From: an uncultured Chloroflexia bacterium
Lineage (GTDB): Bacteria > Chloroflexota > Chloroflexia > Thermomicrobiales > UBA6265
Assembly: GCA_963741805.1 (NCBI GenBank)
Contig: CAVUJR010000059.1
Span: forward strand, 9,242-73,241
Reading direction: 5' to 3'
Length of the DNA stretch: 64,000 nucleotides
Part shown: positions 10,387-60,894 of the stretch, in pieces
How the letters are laid out: the number at the start of each line of letters is the position of its first letter
Position numbering within the stretch: position 1 is the first letter of the stretch
Made by a program: the position numbers and the translations under genes
The notes under the pieces: generated by a model
What the model was told of the DNA's origin: nothing
The model's database searches: none
Seen by the model: only the letters and a program-made list of their open reading frames with translations

Positions 10387-11409
10387 ATGCTCCCCCGCCT
10401 GCTCTCCACCTTGTTCGCGTTCACACTTCTGCTCCCCGGGTGGGCTGCACCTACGTCAGCGGGCCGGGAGGTCCGTTGCGGCGACGCTATCTCTGGTCTC
10501 GCACCTCCTGCCGCCGGACAACCCGGCCAATGGACAACGTTGACGCCCATGCCGCGGCCGCGCTCCGAGCTGGCGGCAGCCGTGGTCGACGAGTGGATCT
10601 ATATCGTCGGCGGATTCGGCGGCCTGGCGCAGGTGGAGTGTTTCCACCCCGCGCCCGGAACGTGGGCGGCCGCGCCAGACCTGCCCGAAGGTGTTCATCA
10701 TCCCGGCGTGGCCTCGCTCGACGACGTCGTCTTCGTCGCGGGCGGGTACACGGAAGACGGCTCGACGACCGATGCGCTGTGGGCGTTCACTCCGCGAACG
10801 GGCACATGGGAGGCCCGCGCGCCAATGCCGACCGCGCGCGGTGCGCTCGGGCTGGCGGCGGTTGACGGCAGGCTCTACGCAATCGGCGGCGCCGAGGAGC
10901 GGTTGAACGGGCCAGTCACCGGTGCGATCGAGATCTACGACCCGGCGACCGACTCGTGGTCGGCTGGTAGAGGAATGCCAACGCCCCGCGAGCACCTGGC
11001 CGTCGTGGTCGGGGATGGCACCATCTACGCCGTGGGCGGACGCGCAAACGGCGACGAGGACGAGCAGTACGCCTCCGCGGTCGAAGCGTACGACCCGGTG
11101 TCGGACGCCTGGAAGACTCTCCCTTCCCTGCCGACACCACGCGGCGGATTCACGGGCGTCTTCATCTCCGGTCACGTCGTGGTGGTGGGCGGTGAGCGCG
11201 GATCGACGACGTTCGACGCCGTGGATGCCTATGACGTGGCGACCGGCCAGTGGACCTCGCTGCCGCCGATGCTGACCGCGCGGCATGGCGTGGCGACGGC
11301 GGTCATCGGCGACACGGTCTACGCGATCGGCGGGAGCACGCTGGCTGGCCGGGTCCAGAACACCGGCGCGGCCGAGGCGATCACCTTGCCAGAGGAGGCC
11401 TTCCCGTGA
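10387..11409 (+). CDS. Kelch-repeat protein, secreted
   Basis: Signal-like MLPRLLSTLFAFTLLLPGWAAPTSA. Six repeats of the IYxxGG type (IYIVGGF, VFVAGGY, LYAIGGA, IYAVGGR, VVVVGGE, VYAIGGS). Confidence 0.8.
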   Translation: MLPRLLSTLFAFTLLLPGWAAPTSAGREVRCGDAISGLAPPAAGQPGQWTTLTPMPRPRSELAAAVVDEWIYIVGGFGGLAQVECFHPAPGTWAAAPDLPEGVHHPGVASLDDVVFVAGGYTEDGSTTDALWAFTPRTGTWEARAPMPTARGALGLAAVDGRLYAIGGAEERLNGPVTGAIEIYDPATDSWSAGRGMPTPREHLAVVVGDGTIYAVGGRANGDEDEQYASAVEAYDPVSDAWKTLPSLPTPRGGFTGVFISGHVVVVGGERGSTTFDAVDAYDVATGQWTSLPPMLTARHGVATAVIGDTVYAIGGSTLAGRVQNTGAAEAITLPEEAFP

Positions 11410-53549: not shown

Positions 53550-53808
53550 GGTGGCCTCCGGGGTTGGCGCGGATGGGCGGTCTCTTATGGAAGAACGATC
53601 CGAATCGTCACGCCGTTCCGCATACGGTTATGTATGCCCAAACCAGCATTGACTTTTGATCTGGCGTAAACTTCCGAAAGGACGACACAACGGCGGCGCG
53701 TCGCCATGTTTTCCTGGCGACGCCAATACAGCCACAGGACGAGACGCCCGCGACTGGTTGAGGAGCCGCGCGGGGCCCCGGCCGGCGGCCACGACAGGGA
53801 GCGCACGG

Positions 53809-55818
53809 ATGCCATACACGCCGACCTCCGCCACGGATGCCGCGACAGCCACGCTTGACCGCCTCTCGCAGCTGGCGGGAACGCGGTTCGAGTCGCTGGA
53901 GGACGCGACAGAGGCCGTGCTCGTGACAATGACGGATCTGCTCGGGATGCGGACGTCGTGGGTCACAGAGCTGGACAGCGCGGCGTGTGACCTGACGGTG
54001 AAGCACTCGCACAAGGAACCGGGCGGGTTCGATATGCCGCGCGGTGCCGCGGCACCGGTGGCCGCGACATTCTGTAGCGCGATCATCAACGCCGTCGAGC
54101 CACGGCCGTTGATCATCGAGGACGTCCGCAACGACCCGCATTTTTCCCAATGCCTGGCGGCGAAGACATTCCCGCGCGTGGGGTCGTATGTCGGCGTGCC
54201 GATCATGCTGAGCGACGGGACGCTGCATGGAACGCTCTGCGCGAGCGATGCGGCGCCAACGCGGATCACGCCGCAGCAGGCGCAGTTGCTGTCCGTGCTG
54301 TCGCGGCTGTTGGCGACGCAGATCGAGCGCGACGGGGAGTTCGCGGCCCGCGTCCAGGCGGAGGAGCGCTTCCACGCCTTTATGGATCACACGCCGGCGA
54401 TCGGGTACATGAAGGACCCCGAGGGGCGCTACGTGTTCGCGAACCGGCCCTGGTCCGACGCGTTCGGGCATGAGCCGGGATGGATCATCGGGAAGACGGA
54501 CGTCGACTGGCTCGACGCGGAAACGGCCCGGCAGGTACGCGAGAACGACGCGGCCGTGTTGCGATCGGGGCAAGTACAGAGGCTCTACGAGACGTCTCTC
54601 GACCCGGACGGGAGGCCTCGCTACTGGTACTCGATCAAGTTCCCGGTGACGGACGGCGACGGGGCGGTCTATCTCGGCGGGGTGTCGGCGGACATCACCG
54701 ACCAGCGCGAGCAGGAACTGCAGCGGGCGCTGCTTGCGGAGATCGTCGACAACACGCAGGACGCGATCTACTCGAAGACGCTCGACGACGTGGTGCTGAC
54801 GTGGAACCGCTCGGCGGAACGGCTCTATGGCTACACGGCGGAGGAAATAATCGGGCAGCGGCTGGATATCCTGCTGCCGGCGGACCTCGCGGACGACCTG
54901 GCGCGTATTCATGAGCGGCTGGAGCGTGGTGAGCGCGTGACGCAGTACGAGACGCGGCGGTGCACGAAGGACGGCCGGACCATCGATGTGTCGCTCACGC
55001 TGTCGCTGATCCGGGACGCCGAGGGCGAGATCGCGGGGGTTTCGACAATCGCGCGGGATATCACGGAGCACAAGCGGCTGGTCGCCGAGCGCGACCGGCT
55101 GTACGGCGAGCTGCGCGAAGAGGTGGCGCGGGCGGCGGAGATCCAGGCGCACCTGCTGCCGACGTCGGTGCCGCGGATAGCGGGGTTCGAGTTCGCGGCG
55201 ATATGCCGGCCCGCGCGCGAGGTGGGCGGCGACTTCTTCGACTGGGCGGAGACCGACGACGGCGTGCGACTGGTGCTGGCCGACGTGACCGGCAAGGGCA
55301 TGGCGGCGGCGCTGCTGATGGCGACCACGCGGGCGGCGTTGCGGGCGGCGTCACACCTGCCGGTGGACGAGGCGATCACGACGGTGAACCGGACGCTGAT
55401 GGCGGACCTGGCGTCGTCGGACGCGTTCGTGACGATGTTCCACGCCGAGGTCCGGCCAGACGGTCGGGTGACGTTCACCGACGCCGGCCACGGCATGGCG
55501 CTGATCATCCGGCGGGACGGGGCGGTGGAGCCGCTGCGGCATCGGCAGGTGCCGATCGGCATTATGCCGGAACCACCATATACTGCGACGGAGACGCAAC
55601 TGGAACCGGGCGACACCCTGCTCGTCTATAGCGACGGCCTTCCGGACGCCCGGCCCGACCTGGAGCTCGACCACCCGGCGAACGTGGCGGCGCTCTGCGG
55701 TCGCGGCGGCGACGCGAGGCAGATGCTGGCGTCACTCGAGCGCGTGACTGAGGGCCATGGTCCTCGACCTGACGACCTGACCCTCATCGCCGTTCGACGG
55801 CAGGAGCACCGCGTGTGA
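53809..55818 (+). CDS. GAF-PAS-PAS sensor fused to a PP2C (SpoIIE/RsbU-type) serine phosphatase
   Basis: GAF (..YVGVPIMLSDGTLHGTLCASD). Two PAS S-boxes (..YWYSIKFPV.., ..TIDVSLTLSLIRD). SpoIIE motifs (GGDFFDW, LADVTGKGMAAAL, YSDGLPDA). Confidence 0.85.
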   Translation: MPYTPTSATDAATATLDRLSQLAGTRFESLEDATEAVLVTMTDLLGMRTSWVTELDSAACDLTVKHSHKEPGGFDMPRGAAAPVAATFCSAIINAVEPRPLIIEDVRNDPHFSQCLAAKTFPRVGSYVGVPIMLSDGTLHGTLCASDAAPTRITPQQAQLLSVLSRLLATQIERDGEFAARVQAEERFHAFMDHTPAIGYMKDPEGRYVFANRPWSDAFGHEPGWIIGKTDVDWLDAETARQVRENDAAVLRSGQVQRLYETSLDPDGRPRYWYSIKFPVTDGDGAVYLGGVSADITDQREQELQRALLAEIVDNTQDAIYSKTLDDVVLTWNRSAERLYGYTAEEIIGQRLDILLPADLADDLARIHERLERGERVTQYETRRCTKDGRTIDVSLTLSLIRDAEGEIAGVSTIARDITEHKRLVAERDRLYGELREEVARAAEIQAHLLPTSVPRIAGFEFAAICRPAREVGGDFFDWAETDDGVRLVLADVTGKGMAAALLMATTRAALRAASHLPVDEAITTVNRTLMADLASSDAFVTMFHAEVRPDGRVTFTDAGHGMALIIRRDGAVEPLRHRQVPIGIMPEPPYTATETQLEPGDTLLVYSDGLPDARPDLELDHPANVAALCGRGGDARQMLASLERVTEGHGPRPDDLTLIAVRRQEHRV

Positions 55819-57992
55819 CGCGACGACATCGCCCTGGAATAGACCTTTGCATCCTTGTCATGGTGCTCGGGCTACTACTGGTCCCTTCGTCCCGCCAGCT
55901 CATGGCGCAGACGCCGCAGGCGACGACGCCAGTCGCGTCACCGGTCGTTCCAGCTGACGCGGCGGGCAGTTTCGCGGCGTTCGGCTACGACGATGTGACG
56001 GCGCGAGGCATGTTCGCCTCAACGACCTACACGTTCCCGCTGCCGCTCGCCACCTCGGCGCCGAGCGGGGGCCGCCTCGACCTCCTGTACCGCCACTCCC
56101 CGCTGCTGGTCGGCGATCTCTCGACGATGACCGTGCTCGTCAACGGCCAGAGCGTCGATAGCGTGCACCTCACGGAGGACACGGCGGTATCCGGCCGGCT
56201 GGCGGTCGACCTCCCACCGCTGGAGGACGATGCGGACGCTGTACAGGTCACGCTCTCCTTCCACTTGCGGCTGACGCGCGAGGCGTGTGAGATCCCGGAC
56301 GACCCGGCGCTGTGGGTGACGATCGACAAGGCATCGACGCTGACCTTACCGACGGGGTCCGGCGAGGCGGAGGTCCACGTCGTGGACGCGCCGTCGCTGC
56401 TTCGCCGGAGCGCGCAGGAGACCGGCGCCGGTCCGGTGATCGTCATGCCGGATGCGGGGGCGCTGGATGCGGCGGGCGTGGTGAGCTACCAGCTCGGACA
56501 ATGGTCCGGGATGGCGAACACGCCGGTCTCGCTCGGTGATGTGGTGACCGACATGCCGGCGAGCGACCAGGCGGCGGTGATCGTCGGGACCGGCGGCACG
56601 CTGGAGCTGGGCGACGGCTGGGGCCCGCTCGCGTGGGATGGCGAGCGGTTCACGCTGGATGGCGTGGCAGTGCCGGAGGGCCATGGCGTGCTGGCGATGC
56701 GGCAGCAGCCGGTGCCGCAGATCCTGGTCAGCGGGGCGAACCCGGAGGCGGTGCGACTGGCGGCACGTGCCTTGTCGCGGCCGATGGATTGGCCGACGTT
56801 CGATGCGCCGGTCGTGATCGTTAGCGGCGAGCTGGCGGAGGCGAGCCCGAGCCGCTACGCGTGGCGAGAGGGAGCCGCGAGCTTCGCCCAACTCGGCGGC
56901 TATCGGCAGGACGTGACCGGACCCGGCGAGCACTTCATCGACCTCCCCTACCAGCGGCCGGCGGACTGGGTGCTCCGGGACGGTAGCCAACTGACGCTGG
57001 ACCTGCAGGTCTCTCCGGCTGTGCGGGCCGAGACCTCGTGGGTGCGGGTGACGGTGAACGGGCAGGATATCGGCACGCAACCGCTGCGCGCGCATGAGGA
57101 CGGCGTGCAGACGTACACGTTCGACCTGCCGGCCGACCGGCTGAATGTGGACCTGGACGGGCAGCCGGAGCGGGACCTCATGGTGCAGGTGCGGCTGTTC
57201 CTCGACGACCCGCGCGAGACATGCGAGTCGATCGACCCGGCGGCGACGTGGGCGGCGCTCTTGCCGACATCGGCGATCTCCTTGCCGCATGACAGCAGCG
57301 ACGAGCCGGATCTCGGGCGGTTCCCGGCCGGATTGACCTCCGACGACGATCCGGCAGCAATGACCGTCGTGGTGCCGGACGAGGCGACGGCCGAGGAGCA
57401 GCAGGCGGCGCTCCAGACCCTGGCGGCGGTCGGGCGCTGGAACGCCTGGTCAGCGCCGGTCGAGCCGGACGTGATGACCGCCGGTGAGATCTCCAGCGAG
57501 GCGCTGCAGGGCCGGTCCGTGATTCTGATCGGCGGGCCCGAGCGAAACGGCGCCGCGAGCGAGCTGGGCGACGAGACGCTGCAGGCGATCGCGCCTCCCG
57601 CCTACGCCGAGGTCGACGCGCCCTATGGCGTGCTGGCGCTGGGCGACTCACCATGGTCGGACGGCGACATGGCGCTGCTCGTGGCGGGCTCCAACGACGA
57701 TGGCGAGGGCGTCCTGCTGGCGGCGGCGGCGCTTGGCAACCAGGATGTACTCGCCAGCGTGCGGGGCACGCGCGTCGCGATCACGGGCAATCTCGGGCCA
57801 CAGACGATGGCCGGGGCCGAGCCGTCGAGAGCGATGCGGTCCGACCTCGCGCCGCAGGTGTTGCCGGACGAGCGCCCGTGGATCGAGCGCATCGACGCGT
57901 GGCAGGTCGTCGGGGCGATCGTGCTGGTCGCCTTCCTCGCGCTGGTAATCGGCGTGGTCCAGCTGCGCTGGCTCCGCGGCGGTCGGCGCTAG
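55815..57992 (+). CDS. bcsB: Cellulose synthase regulatory subunit BcsB-like protein
   Basis: N-terminal signal/TM, then RLDLLYRHSPLLVGDLSTMTVLVNGQSV (BcsB repeat pattern), then a C-terminal TM anchor. The GTG overlaps the PP2C stop (GTGA). Confidence 0.7.
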   Translation: MTRRHRPGIDLCILVMVLGLLLVPSSRQLMAQTPQATTPVASPVVPADAAGSFAAFGYDDVTARGMFASTTYTFPLPLATSAPSGGRLDLLYRHSPLLVGDLSTMTVLVNGQSVDSVHLTEDTAVSGRLAVDLPPLEDDADAVQVTLSFHLRLTREACEIPDDPALWVTIDKASTLTLPTGSGEAEVHVVDAPSLLRRSAQETGAGPVIVMPDAGALDAAGVVSYQLGQWSGMANTPVSLGDVVTDMPASDQAAVIVGTGGTLELGDGWGPLAWDGERFTLDGVAVPEGHGVLAMRQQPVPQILVSGANPEAVRLAARALSRPMDWPTFDAPVVIVSGELAEASPSRYAWREGAASFAQLGGYRQDVTGPGEHFIDLPYQRPADWVLRDGSQLTLDLQVSPAVRAETSWVRVTVNGQDIGTQPLRAHEDGVQTYTFDLPADRLNVDLDGQPERDLMVQVRLFLDDPRETCESIDPAATWAALLPTSAISLPHDSSDEPDLGRFPAGLTSDDDPAAMTVVVPDEATAEEQQAALQTLAAVGRWNAWSAPVEPDVMTAGEISSEALQGRSVILIGGPERNGAASELGDETLQAIAPPAYAEVDAPYGVLALGDSPWSDGDMALLVAGSNDDGEGVLLAAAALGNQDVLASVRGTRVAITGNLGPQTMAGAEPSRAMRSDLAPQVLPDERPWIERIDAWQVVGAIVLVAFLALVIGVVQLRWLRGGRR

Positions 57993-57993
57993 G

Positions 57994-60060
57994 GTGGCCC
58001 TGGCGGAGGTCGACGAGGCCGGGAGCGACGCGATACCGGAGCACGCCCGGCGCGATATGCGCGTGCGACAGTACGCGATCCGCGTGCTGATCGTCGCGAA
58101 CCTCCTCCTTGGCACCTACTACATGGTGTGGCGCTACACGGCGTCGATCAACTGGGCGTTCTGGCCGCTGGCGCTGGCACTGCTGGCGGCCGAGACGTAC
58201 AGCTTCATCGACTCATGGCTGATGGGCGCCAGCATGTGGAAATGGCACCGGCGCTTCATCTCGCCCCCGCCAAGGGGTGACGAGACGGTCGATGTCTTCA
58301 TCACCTGCTACAACGAGCCGGTCGATCTGGTCGAGGAGACGGCCCGGGCGGCGTTGAAGCTGAACCATCCCTGCACGGTCTACGTCTGCGACGACGGCGA
58401 CAGCGCCGAGATGCGGGCGATGACGGAGCGGATCGGCTGCAACTACATCACCCGCGCGGCAGTGTGGAAGGGCAAGGAACGCCACGCCAAGGCGGGCAAC
58501 CTGATCAACGCCCTCGACCAGACCGACGGCGAGTACCTGCTCATCCTTGACGCCGACCAGGTGCCGATGCCGGAACTGCTGGACGAGACGCTCGGCTACT
58601 TCAGCGACCCGTCGGTCGCCTTCGTGCAAACGCCACAGTGGTTCAAGAACGTTCCGGAGGGTGACCCGTTCGGGAGCCAGGCGCCACTGTTCTACGGCCC
58701 GATCCAGGAGGCGAAGGACGGCTGGAACGCGGCGTTCTTCTGCGGTTCGAACGCGGTCCTGCGACGGGACGCACTGCTTCACGCCGGGCTGGTGAACTAC
58801 GCCCGGGACCTGCGCGTGCAACTGCAGAACATCCTCAACGAGGCATCGCCACAGCTCGACGCGCTGGCACTCGACCTCGAGACTCGTGGGCAGGAGGCCT
58901 ACCTGCCCGCGATCCGGGAGCTGCAGGACGCGGTGCGTGAGGCCAGGGCCGCGCTCTCCGCCAAGGCACCGCTGGCGGAGCTGACCTACCGCTTCCAACG
59001 GCGCGCGCAAGAGGCCGGGCGACAGATCGTCGGGCAGGACTTCGCCGCGATCGCCGCCGAGCTGGACGACATTCCCGGTCTGGACCCGGAGATCGAGATT
59101 CGTGACAAGATCGAGGGCTTGCTGGAGGACCCTGCGGTACTCGCGGGGTTGACCTCGCGCGAGACCTCGCCGCTGCAGGCGTTCGCCGAGGTTCAGCAGC
59201 TCCTGCTGCGGGTGGACGTCGACCGGGCGTTCGAGGCGATGCCGGTGATGTCGCTATCGACCATCTCGGTCACGGAGGACATGGCCACTGCGATGCGGCT
59301 GCACTCGCTCGGGTACCGTTCGGTGTACCACCCGCGCGTGCTGGTCTACGGGCTGGCGCCGGAGGACTTGCGCACGGCGCTCCAGCAGCGGCTACGGTGG
59401 GCGCAGGGCACGATCCAGGTGATGCTGCGCGAGAACCCGCTCTCCTACCCCGGCCTTAAGCCGATGCAGCGGCTGATGTATTTTGCGACGATGTGGAGCT
59501 ACCTCTCGGGATTCTTCGCGGTCGTCTACCTCATCGCGCCGATCCTGTATCTGTTGTTCGGGTGGCTGCCGGTGAACGCGCTCTCGGACGAGTTCTTCTG
59601 GCGGCTGATCCCCTACCTCATCGTCAACCAGTTACTGTTCACCGTAATCGCGTGGGGCCTGCCGACATGGCGCGGTCAGCAGTACAGCCTGGCCCTGTTC
59701 CCGATCTGGATCAAGGCCGTCACGAGCGCGATCGGAAGCGTCCACTTCGGGCAGAAGCTCGGGTTCGTGGTCACGCCAAAGACGCGCCAGGGCGGCGTGT
59801 CGCTGCAAATCGTGCGGCCGCAGCTCGTATTCATGGGATTGCTCGTCGTCTCCGTGATCGTTGGCGTCGGGCGGCTTGCGCTGGGGCTGACGAACAACGG
59901 GATCCCGGTGCTGGTCAACGTGGTGTGGGCGATCTATGACCTTGTGGCGCTCAGCGTCGTGCTGGACGCCGTGTTCTATCATCCGCCGGAAGATGCGGAC
60001 CTGGTGCCGCTCGAAAGCGCGGCGAGTGTTCACGGGCGCGCCGGCACTGGCGGCAAGTAA
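57994..60060 (+). CDS. bcsA: Cellulose synthase-like family-2 glycosyltransferase (BcsA-like, no PilZ domain, internal insertion)
   Basis: Motifs VFITCYNEP, CDDG, LILDADQVP, FCGSNAVLRR, TEDMATA and QQRLRWAQG (QxxRW). The C-terminus is TM helices only. About 155 extra aa lie before TED. Confidence 0.85.
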   Translation: MALAEVDEAGSDAIPEHARRDMRVRQYAIRVLIVANLLLGTYYMVWRYTASINWAFWPLALALLAAETYSFIDSWLMGASMWKWHRRFISPPPRGDETVDVFITCYNEPVDLVEETARAALKLNHPCTVYVCDDGDSAEMRAMTERIGCNYITRAAVWKGKERHAKAGNLINALDQTDGEYLLILDADQVPMPELLDETLGYFSDPSVAFVQTPQWFKNVPEGDPFGSQAPLFYGPIQEAKDGWNAAFFCGSNAVLRRDALLHAGLVNYARDLRVQLQNILNEASPQLDALALDLETRGQEAYLPAIRELQDAVREARAALSAKAPLAELTYRFQRRAQEAGRQIVGQDFAAIAAELDDIPGLDPEIEIRDKIEGLLEDPAVLAGLTSRETSPLQAFAEVQQLLLRVDVDRAFEAMPVMSLSTISVTEDMATAMRLHSLGYRSVYHPRVLVYGLAPEDLRTALQQRLRWAQGTIQVMLRENPLSYPGLKPMQRLMYFATMWSYLSGFFAVVYLIAPILYLLFGWLPVNALSDEFFWRLIPYLIVNQLLFTVIAWGLPTWRGQQYSLALFPIWIKAVTSAIGSVHFGQKLGFVVTPKTRQGGVSLQIVRPQLVFMGLLVVSVIVGVGRLALGLTNNGIPVLVNVVWAIYDLVALSVVLDAVFYHPPEDADLVPLESAASVHGRAGTGGK

Positions 60061-60089: not shown

Positions 60090-60443
60090 ATGGCGACCTC
60101 GATGACAAGCTCGGTGGACGCGGGGCGGACCGGGATCAGCGTGGTGCATCTCGGCGGGCGGCTCGACATCGCCTCGGCGGCGGAGGCCAAGCGCCTCTTC
60201 GCGGAGACGGTGCAGGGCGGCGTGGCGCGGCTGATCGTGGACCTCGCCGGGATCACCTTTATCGACAGCTCCGGGCTCAGTGCGCTAGTCAGCGGCTTGC
60301 GCTCCTGCCGGCAGGCGGGTGGTGACCTACGGATCGCGGCGGCGGGTGAGCAGCCAACGGCGGTGCTCGCGCTGACATCGCTCGACCAGGTCTTCCGGCT
60401 CTACCCGACCGTGGCGGAGGCAGTCGATGGGTTTGCAGGCTGA
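60090..60443 (+). CDS. STAS-domain anti-sigma-factor antagonist (SpoIIAA/RsbV-like)
   Basis: LIVDLAGITFIDSSGLSALV carries the conserved phosphorylatable Ser in the DSSG motif. Confidence 0.85.
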   Translation: MATSMTSSVDAGRTGISVVHLGGRLDIASAAEAKRLFAETVQGGVARLIVDLAGITFIDSSGLSALVSGLRSCRQAGGDLRIAAAGEQPTAVLALTSLDQVFRLYPTVAEAVDGFAG

Positions 60444-60894
60444 GCACCCGCTTGTCCAGATCGAACGCGACGTGAGCGCGAGCCTCGACGGACTTGCGAC
60501 CGTGCACGAGGCGCTGGATGACTACTGGAACGCGATCGAGGTTGCCGGTGGTCCCCATGTCGATAGCATGCGGCAGGTTCTTTTCGCCTCCGCGGTCGCA
60601 GAGATCGCCGGGAACGTCGTGCGCCATGCCTATCCGGACGCAGGCGCCGACGCCACCTTTCGCATTCGCCTGCACTACTTTCCGGACAGGCTGGTGGCGA
60701 CCTTGCTCGACCACGGGTTGCCGTTCGACTTCACCCCGCCGACGCGCACGGCCGATATGCGGGACGCGCTCGACGATCTCGACCTCGACCACGGCTGGGG
60801 GCTGCCGATCGTCCAGGCGGCGACCGACGAGCTGGACTATGCGCGTTTACCGGACGGATCGAATCGATGGCGGCTGGTTAAGCTGCTGTCGTGA
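60427..60894 (+). CDS. RsbW/SpoIIAB-like anti-sigma serine kinase (HATPase_c_2)
   Basis: AVAEIAGNVVRHAY (N-box) and DHGWGLPIV (G-box). It overlaps the STAS gene by 17 nt. Confidence 0.8.
   Translation: MGLQAEHPLVQIERDVSASLDGLATVHEALDDYWNAIEVAGGPHVDSMRQVLFASAVAEIAGNVVRHAYPDAGADATFRIRLHYFPDRLVATLLDHGLPFDFTPPTRTADMRDALDDLDLDHGWGLPIVQAATDELDYARLPDGSNRWRLVKLLS

Follow-up and report, generated by a model that had tools for sequence, protein, structure and literature searches.

Genes at the synthase locus

The analyzed stretch of DNA, 64,000 nucleotides from an uncultured Chloroflexia bacterium (hereafter the window), contains a gene for a BcsA-like processive GT2 synthase which lacks a PilZ domain and carries an insert (57994..60060, + strand, 688 aa; identified by Pfam, phmmer and Foldseek). 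Upstream of it lie a gene for a serine phosphatase of GAF-PAS-PAS-SpoIIE (PP2C) architecture, which provides the signal input to the cassette (53656..55818, + strand; Pfam SpoIIE 5.7e-38, together with PAS and GAF), and a gene for a periplasmic BcsB-like subunit anchored in the membrane by its C-terminus (55815..57992, + strand; Pfam BcsB 5.9e-55). Downstream follows a gene for a single-domain STAS protein of the anti-sigma-antagonist type with a DSSG serine (60090..60443, + strand; Pfam STAS 2.1e-21), whose end is overlapped by the start of a gene for an RsbW/SpoIIAB-like GHKL serine kinase (60427..60894, + strand; Pfam HATPase_c_2 9.5e-13). Over 82 STAS proteins from such cassettes, the sequence DSSGLGAL reached a conservation of at least 90%, and the N-box (E..N..H) and G2 box of the kinase were conserved in 77 homologues. 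The three regulators thus match those of the RsbU-RsbV-RsbW and SpoIIE-SpoIIAA-SpoIIAB systems, including the phosphorylatable serine and the kinase boxes. Unlike in those systems, however, no sigma factor gene was found in the window locus (ORFs, Pfam) or as a recurrent neighbour of the cassette across the loci examined; what stays invariant next to the switch genes is the synthase. Beyond sensor kinases, no further conserved cassette genes were detected across the loci.

Pfam matches of the synthase ORF, to GT2 and Cellulose_synt, fell into two segments apart from each other. In a phmmer search against PDB sequences, residues 27-265 were aligned to residues 197-447 of E. coli BcsA and residues 422-654 to BcsA residues 450-683 (7lby, E 1.5e-58). 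All catalytic motifs are present (CDDG132, DAD186, FFCGS248, TED427 within a VTED beginning at 426, and QRLRW465), and the gating-loop motif FxVTxK, conserved across the insert-bearing family, occurs as FVVTPK at 591-596. The motif assignment of an earlier, sequence-only reading of this DNA was therefore correct. The AlphaFold2 model of the full-length protein (pLDDT 81.3, pTM 0.79) gave BcsA as its top Foldseek match (4e-28). The cut-offs of two curated equivalog models were not reached, namely that of TIGR03030 (CelA), with 337.4 instead of 699.1 bits, and that of NF008558, with a score of 256 instead of 992. PilZ (PF07238) was not found in the synthase by Pfam, as the same reading had stated, and the chain ends about 30 residues after the last transmembrane helix. 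Being devoid of PilZ, the enzyme therefore lacks this c-di-GMP receptor.

The closest known counterparts are the BcsA-BcsB complexes of Rhodobacter sphaeroides (4HG6/4P00) and E. coli (7LBY/9FMV), with which the window synthase shares the GT2 and transmembrane core, the motifs D, DxD, FFCGS, TED, QxxRW and FxVTxK and also the adjacent BcsB gene. It differs from BcsA by the missing C-terminal PilZ domain and by an insert of 156 residues at a site where BcsA has two or three. Moreover, neither BcsZ nor BcsC belongs to the cassette, and members from Actinomycetota have no detected BcsB.

The insert in the catalytic domain

The insert comprises residues 266-421 (58789..59256, + strand) between the FFCGS segment and TED, as delimited by phmmer alignments to BcsA and CesA. 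Since the alignment to 7lby stops at residue 265 and resumes at 422, its approximately 156 residues fill the site of the two or three residues of BcsA. An insertion immediately ahead of TED had been proposed from the letters of the sequence, at 58789-59259 or residues 266-422; it is real, and these limits are right within one codon. Its description as rich in Ala, Leu, Glu and Arg also holds, as these residues make up 50% of the insert versus 32% of the remainder of the synthase. No match to the insert was obtained in Pfam, NCBIfam or PDB sequences, and when an insert profile was compared with every PDB chain, those of CesA among them, the best hit had an E value of 0.15 and concerned designed helical repeats. 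Searching 1.84 billion representative proteins with the profile yielded 59 clusters, the tested ones of which were GT2 synthases or fragments. Two weak matches to Wzz (E 3e-5 and 1e-4) were attributed to the composition bias of coiled coils. The clusters also included P0162, a protein of 623 aa that has no Pfam match.

AlphaFold2 predicted a stalk of three long antiparallel helices (258-297, 301-322 and 327-358; 58765..59067, + strand), the first of which prolongs the RRDAL helix of the GT core. The helices were modelled with pLDDT values of 80-90 in the full-length protein and above 90 in the insert alone (80-97 over both models), so the helical character suspected at the outset was recovered in each case. 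The stalk is followed by a C-terminal lobe of short helices (359-421; 59068..59256, + strand) with low to moderate confidence (pLDDT 42-56 when modelled within the full-length protein, 56-73 with the insert alone). This lobe runs directly into the TED finger helix and harbors the most conserved motifs of the insert. One of them, R389-E-T-S392-P393-L394 (59158..59175, + strand), opens a helix at 393-405 in the full-length model and may therefore be a helix N-cap, a contact site or a phospho site. A second one, VDVDRAFEAMP (407-417; 59212..59244, + strand), lies just ahead of TED with D408, D410, R411 and E414 conserved; it is absent from the Chloroflexus variant. Within 85 sequences, T331 and the pair S392-P393 were the only strictly invariant residues of the insert, while Y269, F334, Q335 and R336 were nearly invariant. 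Foldseek searches with the insert-only model disclosed generic or designed helical bundles only, none at E 1e-3 or better, and mimicry of a sigma-factor domain was rejected because no specific fold was matched.

The insertion point is identical to that of the class-specific region (CSR) of plant CesA and CslF6 proteins (PttCesA8 6WLB, soybean CesA 8VHT, CslF6 8DQK), which likewise extends from the equivalent of FFCGS to TED. Residues 159-263 of the synthase were aligned to 442-555 of 6wlb and residue 425 to 685, and the same pattern was obtained with 8vht, 8vi0, 8vhz, 7d5k and 8dqk. The segment at this site is about 129 residues long in PttCesA8 (chain 555 to 685) and about 137 in soybean CesA3. 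The plant CSR is partly flexible and located near the active site (PMC8892547), and the same applies to the modelled window insert. Unlike plant CesA, the window synthase possesses neither a P-CR nor an N-terminal zinc-finger domain, and its insert shows no sequence similarity to the CSR. As the best E value against the PDB was the 0.15 mentioned above, both elements probably have independent origins.

Distribution of the insert and of the cassette

Patterns derived from the family matched more than 598 species-level loci, and 89 synthase genes were examined in detail. The insert HMM matched all 89 of them, in Chloroflexota as well as in Actinomycetota. Because the insert could be aligned in every member and in two phyla, it is neither an accidental expansion nor one private to a lineage; judged by these alignments, it is conserved under selection across both phyla. 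Among the matched genera are the cultivable Arthrobacter, Nocardioides, Kocuria, Cellulomonas, Rhodococcus, Roseiflexus and Chloroflexus. The sequence-only reading had left room for a common feature of an already characterised GT2 subfamily, such as a known accessory domain. The subfamily turned out to be large but uncharacterised, with no known domain matched by the insert, and we found no published account of it.

The same reading had raised the question of whether such inserts co-occur with STAS and RsbW neighbours, and at most loci they do. The gene order with PP2C, STAS, kinase and synthase was kept across 88 loci. Within 5 kb of the insert-bearing synthase, a STAS gene was detected in 83 of the 89 cases (directly downstream in 78), a PP2C gene in 81 and an RsbW-like kinase gene in 78. 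Three of the six carriers without STAS in this range are situated at contig ends, while at two loci (L005 and L035) sequence is present on both sides of the synthase. Conversely, four loci (L008, L014, L019 and L020) have kept STAS with neither kinase nor PP2C close by. STAS is the partner that accompanies the insert-bearing synthase most regularly and at the shortest distance. In the cluster P0080 (30 sequences; L001, L002), synthase, insert and a C-terminal STAS domain are even fused in a single protein, whose STAS part closely resembles the free STAS protein of the window. BcsB was detected in only 11 of the 89 loci. These belong to Roseiflexus, Chloroflexus, the window and relatives, all within Chloroflexota, whereas no Actinomycetota locus gave a hit.

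For comparison, insert-less homologues of the same phylum were inspected. None of 20 had STAS, kinase or PP2C genes as neighbours, as judged by HMMs built from cassette members, which very divergent STAS or kinase genes could escape. Of nine among them that were tested, six carry PilZ instead. In a tree of the synthase core from which the insert had been removed, carriers were split from non-carriers with a support of 0.986. Neither GGDEF nor PilZ domains were detected in the genome of the window. A loss of c-di-GMP signalling, although true of this genome, was nevertheless rejected as the general driver of the family, because other insert carriers have many GGDEF genes.

Possible role of the insert

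The prevailing view is that c-di-GMP activates bacterial BcsA-type synthases via PilZ. In the family described here, the insert might well be a docking and transduction module for a phospho-switch that replaces PilZ and c-di-GMP, most likely by way of unphosphorylated STAS, a reading to which we give slightly less than an even chance. According to it, the sensor-linked PP2C phosphatase would remove the phosphate from the serine in the DSSG motif of STAS, and the unphosphorylated protein would dock on the insert. Via the lobe, which passes without a break into the finger helix, docking would then make the active site productive, until the RsbW-like kinase re-phosphorylates STAS and thereby turns synthesis off. 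Insert, STAS, kinase and PP2C would together do the job of PilZ and c-di-GMP in canonical BcsA. The binding itself, its partner and the direction of the effect are what we infer here; what the analysis shows is the insert with its helical fold and its conservation, its occurrence exclusively with the cassette, and the fusion to STAS. A regulatory docking surface, which the sequence-only reading had suggested for a module it supposed on the gating-loop side of the active site, is strongly favoured by the comparative evidence, since the cassette accompanies most carriers versus none of the 20 insert-less homologues, P0080 joins the synthase to STAS, and most of the insert-less relatives tested bear PilZ. 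The conserved DSSG serine and kinase boxes, the missing sigma factor gene and the lack of GGDEF and PilZ hits in the window's genome also fit docking of STAS, whereas the low model confidence of the segment next to TED and the carriers L005 and L035 speak against it.

Control of enzymes by STAS-type proteins has parallels in SiaABC-SiaD and HsbA-HsbD of Pseudomonas aeruginosa, BgrV-BgrR of Sinorhizobium meliloti, HenR/Alr3423/All4160 of Anabaena and SypA/SypE of Vibrio fischeri. These systems resemble the cassette in that PP2C, STAS and a GHKL kinase, with no sigma factor, are encoded beside an enzyme that makes matrix or polysaccharide, or are fused to it. The STAS-like SiaC activates the cyclase SiaD by binding to a helical stalk (PMC8457831), and the STAS-fused glycosyltransferase All4160 of Anabaena is subject to a serine-phosphorylation switch operated by HenR and Alr3423 (PMC13555669). 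The window system differs from these by its target, a membrane-embedded processive BcsA-type synthase, and by the presumed receiver, an insert in the catalytic domain. Neither of the two is described for any of the systems listed, and the paper on HcyA-D (PMC9127174) has no content on glycosyltransferases.

Instead of STAS, the kinase could be the partner of the insert. In such a classical partner switch the synthase would stand in the place of the sigma factor, the kinase dimer would bind the insert and keep the synthase inactive, and dephosphorylated STAS would free the enzyme by capturing the kinase. Sigma factors are bound by anti-sigma kinases at helical surfaces, and the cassette is the exact RsbU/RsbV/RsbW gene set with the sigma factor gene absent. 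In favour of STAS, its distances followed the synthase core best (mirror-tree, r 0.88); after control for the core by partial Mantel tests, the correlation of the insert was marginally highest with the kinase (partial r 0.12, p 0.006) and 0.10 with STAS, both values being too small to point to either partner. Yet the fusion that occurs in nature links the synthase to STAS and not to the kinase, which is the least constant partner (78/89) and is gone from places where STAS stays. Furthermore, insert and kinase are both strongly acidic (net charges of -11 and -13, respectively), and the insert-only model matched neither a sigma-like nor any other specific fold. We consider binding of the kinase to the insert unlikely.

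A similarly low probability is assigned to an architectural or oligomerisation function, in which the insert, like the plant CSR together with the P-CR, would provide contacts within a multimer, to BcsB or to the envelope and the switch would act elsewhere. Long helical hairpins often mediate self-association, the fold of the insert is a generic helical bundle, and the insertion site is that of the CSR. This explanation, however, leaves unexplained why the insert is confined to synthases with the cassette and never found alongside PilZ, and Actinomycetota loci, in which no BcsB was detected, have the insert just as well.

Plant CesA proteins are phosphorylated in their variable regions, and phosphorylation sites in the CSR modulate CesA. 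That kinase and PP2C act in an analogous manner on T331 or S392, the insert itself being the phospho-acceptor, would suit the fact that its strictly invariant residues are just a Thr and a Ser-Pro pair, but it is very improbable, as kinases of the RsbW/SpoIIAB type are specific for the STAS fold, a STAS protein with the canonical DSSG serine is kept throughout, and S392-P393 lies N-cap-like at a helix start in both AlphaFold2 models.

Returning to docking of STAS, we see an even chance for the wider proposition that the insert is a new receiver domain by which a partner switch based on phospho-serine directly gates a processive, membrane-embedded glucan synthase, as a protein-phosphorylation counterpart of PilZ and c-di-GMP, and that it was acquired once, at the site of the plant CSR, and spread in Chloroflexota and Actinomycetota. 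If the insert is indeed such a receiver, it would constitute a second post-translational control route for exopolysaccharide synthases as well as a non-sigma output of partner switching, as sought for SypA, Hcy, Hmp and similar systems. It would also offer a tractable bacterial model of how an insert at the plant CSR site tunes the active site of a cellulose synthase, and would suggest that enzymes of the cellulose-synthase type are generally controlled at the loop that precedes the TED finger helix. Irrespective of the mechanism, there is a large PilZ-less BcsA-like family in which an insert in the catalytic domain stands alongside a PP2C/STAS/kinase switch instead of PilZ. The input domains of PP2C differ by lineage (GAF, REC or CHASE-PAS). 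The family points to an uncharacterised putative glucan, both in soil-dwelling Gram-positives and in filamentous phototrophs; the hydrolases encoded near the synthase, among which no BcsZ (GH8) was seen, vary by locus and comprise GH26, GH3 and GH16-like enzymes.

Insertion site and fold of the insert

The synthase gene of the window (57994..60060, plus strand) encodes a BcsA-like GT2 protein of 688 aa, in which the Pfam match to the GT2 and Cellulose_synt families was split into two separated pieces. A phmmer comparison against all PDB sequences paired residues 27-265 and 422-654 with residues 197-447 and 450-683 of E. coli BcsA, respectively (7lby, 9fmv; E about 1e-58), and Rhodobacter BcsA gave the same two-block alignment. 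Because the blocks stop at 265 and restart at 422, residues 266-421 (nt 58789-59256, plus strand) are an insertion relative to canonical BcsA, which has two or three residues there. The catalytic signatures CDDG132, DAD186, FFCGS248, TED427 and QRLRW465 are all intact, and the gating-loop motif is FVVTPK591. Ala, Leu, Glu and Arg make up 50% of the insert versus 32% of the remainder of the synthase. Thus, the sequence-only reading had located the insert and the motifs correctly and had rightly described its composition. Pfam did not disclose a PilZ domain in the synthase, which has approximately 30 residues beyond its last membrane helix. The C-terminal tail HGRAGTGGK (residues 680-688; window 60031-60057) is near-invariant among the Thermomicrobiales-type homologues (alignment A1) and was modelled as disordered. 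Six database calls of the synthase gene (P0005, P0008, P0011, P0013, P0017, P0018) have an N-terminus longer by about 80-90 aa. Set against window 55815-57992, this extra part looks like the membrane anchor at the BcsB C-terminus ('ERxxAWQV'); these calls probably cross the bcsB-bcsA junction to a start codon upstream of the true one.

The full-length synthase was modelled by AlphaFold2 with a family alignment of 87 sequences (pLDDT 81.3, pTM 0.79). In this model, three long helices (258-297, 301-322 and 327-358; pLDDT 80-90) account for the first 100 residues of the insert, and the first helix is a continuation of the RRDAL helix in the GT core. Residues 360-427, predicted with low confidence as short helices (pLDDT 42-56), run straight into the TED finger helix. 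A model of the insert only, built with 85 sequences from two phyla, reproduced these three helices with pLDDT above 90 and added three short helices at 56-73, so that the helical nature suspected earlier was recovered in both predictions. Foldseek ranked BcsA first for the full model (4e-28), followed by plant CesA; for the insert alone its matches were confined to designed or generic helical bundles, none of them reaching E 1e-3. Neither Pfam nor NCBIfam contained a match to the insert.

The alignments place the insert at the position of the class-specific region (CSR) of plant CesA, an equivalence established in this analysis. Synthase residues 159-263 pair with 442-555 of poplar CesA8 (6wlb) and residue 425 with 685; since the alignment leaves 6wlb at 555 and re-enters at 685, CesA8 has about 129 residues at this place. 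The same site spans 638 to 775 in soybean CesA3 (8vht) and 508 to 630 in barley CslF6 (8dqk). Sequence homology to the CSR was not detectable: against PDB sequences, the insert profile matched nothing (lowest E 0.15).

Distribution and conservation of the insert

A search restricted to the insert yielded 24 close relatives, all of them full-length GT2 proteins of the Thermomicrobiales type, and a search with the full-length synthase yielded 3,919 matches. Among the best 120 of these, a motif scan located FFCGS, TED and QxxRW in 91 proteins, including members from Roseiflexus and Caldilineaceae; in all 91 the spacing from FFCGS to TED was 163-199 residues, versus about 25 in BcsA. With each species represented by one genome, a scan revealed at least 598 family loci; many of the best 80 belong to Actinomycetota (Nocardioides, Arthrobacter, Pseudarthrobacter, Kocuria, Cellulomonas, Gordonia, Rhodococcus, Prescottella, Williamsia, Microbacterium, Geodermatophilus and Pseudonocardia). 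The insert HMM matched within the synthase in 89/89 genes (88 loci). Judged from these sequences, the insert is a trait of the whole synthase family. Its sequence has diverged more quickly than that of the core (on average 31% vs 60% identical to the window), yet the insert is kept everywhere. In 85 non-identical inserts T331, S392 and P393 are strictly invariant, and Y269, L281, A317, V346, D349, L357, R389, L394, E414, A415 and P417 nearly so.

Against 1.84 billion representative proteins, the insert profile matched 59 clusters only, and those tested were synthases of the window type or fragments of them. The proteins P0176 and P0178 are Wzz chain-length determinants weakly matching the profile (E 3e-5 and 1e-4), probably through coiled-coil bias, and P0162 is a 623-aa protein without Pfam match that fits it at 2.4e-10. 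The insert has a patchy distribution among the 401 Chloroflexota genomes sampled (18 genomes, 6 of 218 genera). It also occurs in MAGs labelled Pseudomonadota (L017, which additionally has STAS and kinase) and Myxococcota (L018), occurrences that could reflect mis-binning or horizontal transfer. In three Chloroflexus MAGs (L012, L013, L016) the insert (about 10730-11125) matches profile positions 2-138 only and carries 'LIPLLVNEAMDYLPIS' in place of the VDVDRxDEAxPVMP motif; PP2C, BcsB, STAS and kinase are retained there.

The phospho-switch cassette as an alternative to PilZ

In the window, genes for a GAF-PAS-PAS-PP2C protein, BcsB, the synthase, STAS and an RsbW-like kinase follow each other, overlapping or abutting. 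The order PP2C, (BcsB), synthase, STAS, kinase recurs in annotated contexts of distant homologues from Roseiflexus, Caldilineaceae and several metagenome-assembled genomes. Purpose-built HMMs detected STAS within 5 kb of 83, kinase of 78, PP2C of 81 and BcsB of 11 of the 89 insert-bearing genes, counts that are descriptive rather than statistical tests, close-kin genomes not being independent. The proposed co-occurrence of the insert with STAS and kinase genes was thereby borne out. STAS lies directly downstream of the synthase in 78 of the 89; of the six genes lacking a nearby STAS, three are at contig ends. The regulatory proteins look functional, to judge by their motifs: across 82 STAS proteins the conservation of DSSGLGAL is 90% or higher, and the N-box and G2 box are conserved in 77 kinases. 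The PP2C sensor domains vary, with GAF in most Actinomycetota tested, REC in Arthrobacter and Roseiflexus, GAF-PAS-PAS in the window and CHASE-PAS elsewhere. No other conserved gene, in particular no sigma factor gene, was found around the cassette across the loci. Arthrobacter sp. NPDC093139 has two synthase-STAS-kinase sets about 6 kb apart on one contig (L029:9312-12699 and L029:18155-21966), each with a PP2C gene nearby, and upstream in L012 a single stop-free frame comprises Hpt, REC, GGDEF, REC and SpoIIE domains.

As controls, 20 BcsA-like genes without insert were taken from the same phylum sample, recognised by a family-model match that is interrupted at positions 271 and about 425-430, with 0-6 residues separating the two parts. 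With HMMs derived from cassette members, no STAS, kinase, PP2C or BcsB was detected within about 7 kb of any of them, and six of nine examined have a C-terminal PilZ domain. In a maximum-likelihood core tree without the insert, one split (support 0.986) parts 75 carriers from the 20 non-carriers, a pattern compatible with one acquisition event. These data show that the insert goes with the cassette and that the two are an alternative to PilZ. The genome of the window (assembly 94.5% complete) revealed no match to GGDEF (PF00990) or PilZ (PF07238); c-di-GMP control is thus apparently not available at all in this organism, which may be devoid of c-di-GMP signalling altogether. As a general reason for the family this was rejected, since five other insert-bearing genomes gave 1-17 GGDEF matches.

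The insert as a candidate receiver

In P0080 (804 aa, a cluster of 30 sequences), encoded in one Thermomicrobiales-type lineage at L001:5625-8039 and L002:1911-4325, the synthase with its insert is followed by a C-terminal STAS domain in a single reading frame. This domain closely resembles the free STAS of the window (common DLRIA and LDxVFRxYPTVEEAV) and takes the position that PilZ has in BcsA. The insert of this lineage has 141 aa and lacks the 'DLAxIxAELxxIPG' segment; BcsB was not detected at its loci.

The most economical mechanism, which we propose tentatively, is that STAS docking on the insert gates the synthase while kinase and PP2C set STAS phosphorylation. Unphosphorylated STAS would dock on the helical insert and, via the conserved lobe leading into the TED finger helix, make the active site productive; phosphorylation of STAS by the kinase would switch the enzyme off, and PP2C, coupled to its sensor, would switch it on. 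HsbA-HsbD is one precedent for such a mechanism. Another for partner-switch proteins acting on an enzyme is SiaC-SiaD (PMC8457831), and for All4160, a STAS-fused glycosyltransferase, direct partner-switch action was shown in 2026 (PMC13555669). In the classical alternative, the kinase would bind the insert in the way that anti-sigma factors bind their sigma factors. A mirror-tree analysis did not separate STAS and kinase as candidate partners. We consider kinase binding unlikely: the fusion partner in P0080 is STAS, STAS is the most constant partner, no sigma-like fold was recognised in the insert, and the charges of insert and kinase are unfavourable. A purely architectural insert is improbable too, leaving the exclusive co-occurrence with the cassette unexplained. 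Direct phosphorylation of T331 or S392 is very unlikely because of the substrate specificity of this kinase type and the retained STAS serine.

Enzymes that make polysaccharide or c-di-GMP are known to be direct targets of partner-switch proteins. Full-text literature searches brought up no study of this synthase family, nor any that dealt with STAS, SpoIIE or anti-sigma genes together with an enzyme of the cellulose synthase type. New here are the recognition of the insert as a candidate receiver that defines the family, the finding that it pairs exclusively with the cassette, and the mutual exclusion of insert and PilZ in the genes sampled. The product may be cellulose or another beta-glucan, possibly a polymer other than plain cellulose. 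No GH8 BcsZ was seen at the loci. GH26 genes lie upstream at the P0080 loci and a GH3 gene downstream in L007, and a GH16-like ORF (WPAVWMLG, EIDIVE) precedes the cassette at L037:8635-9855 and at 11 other actinobacterial loci (12 altogether).
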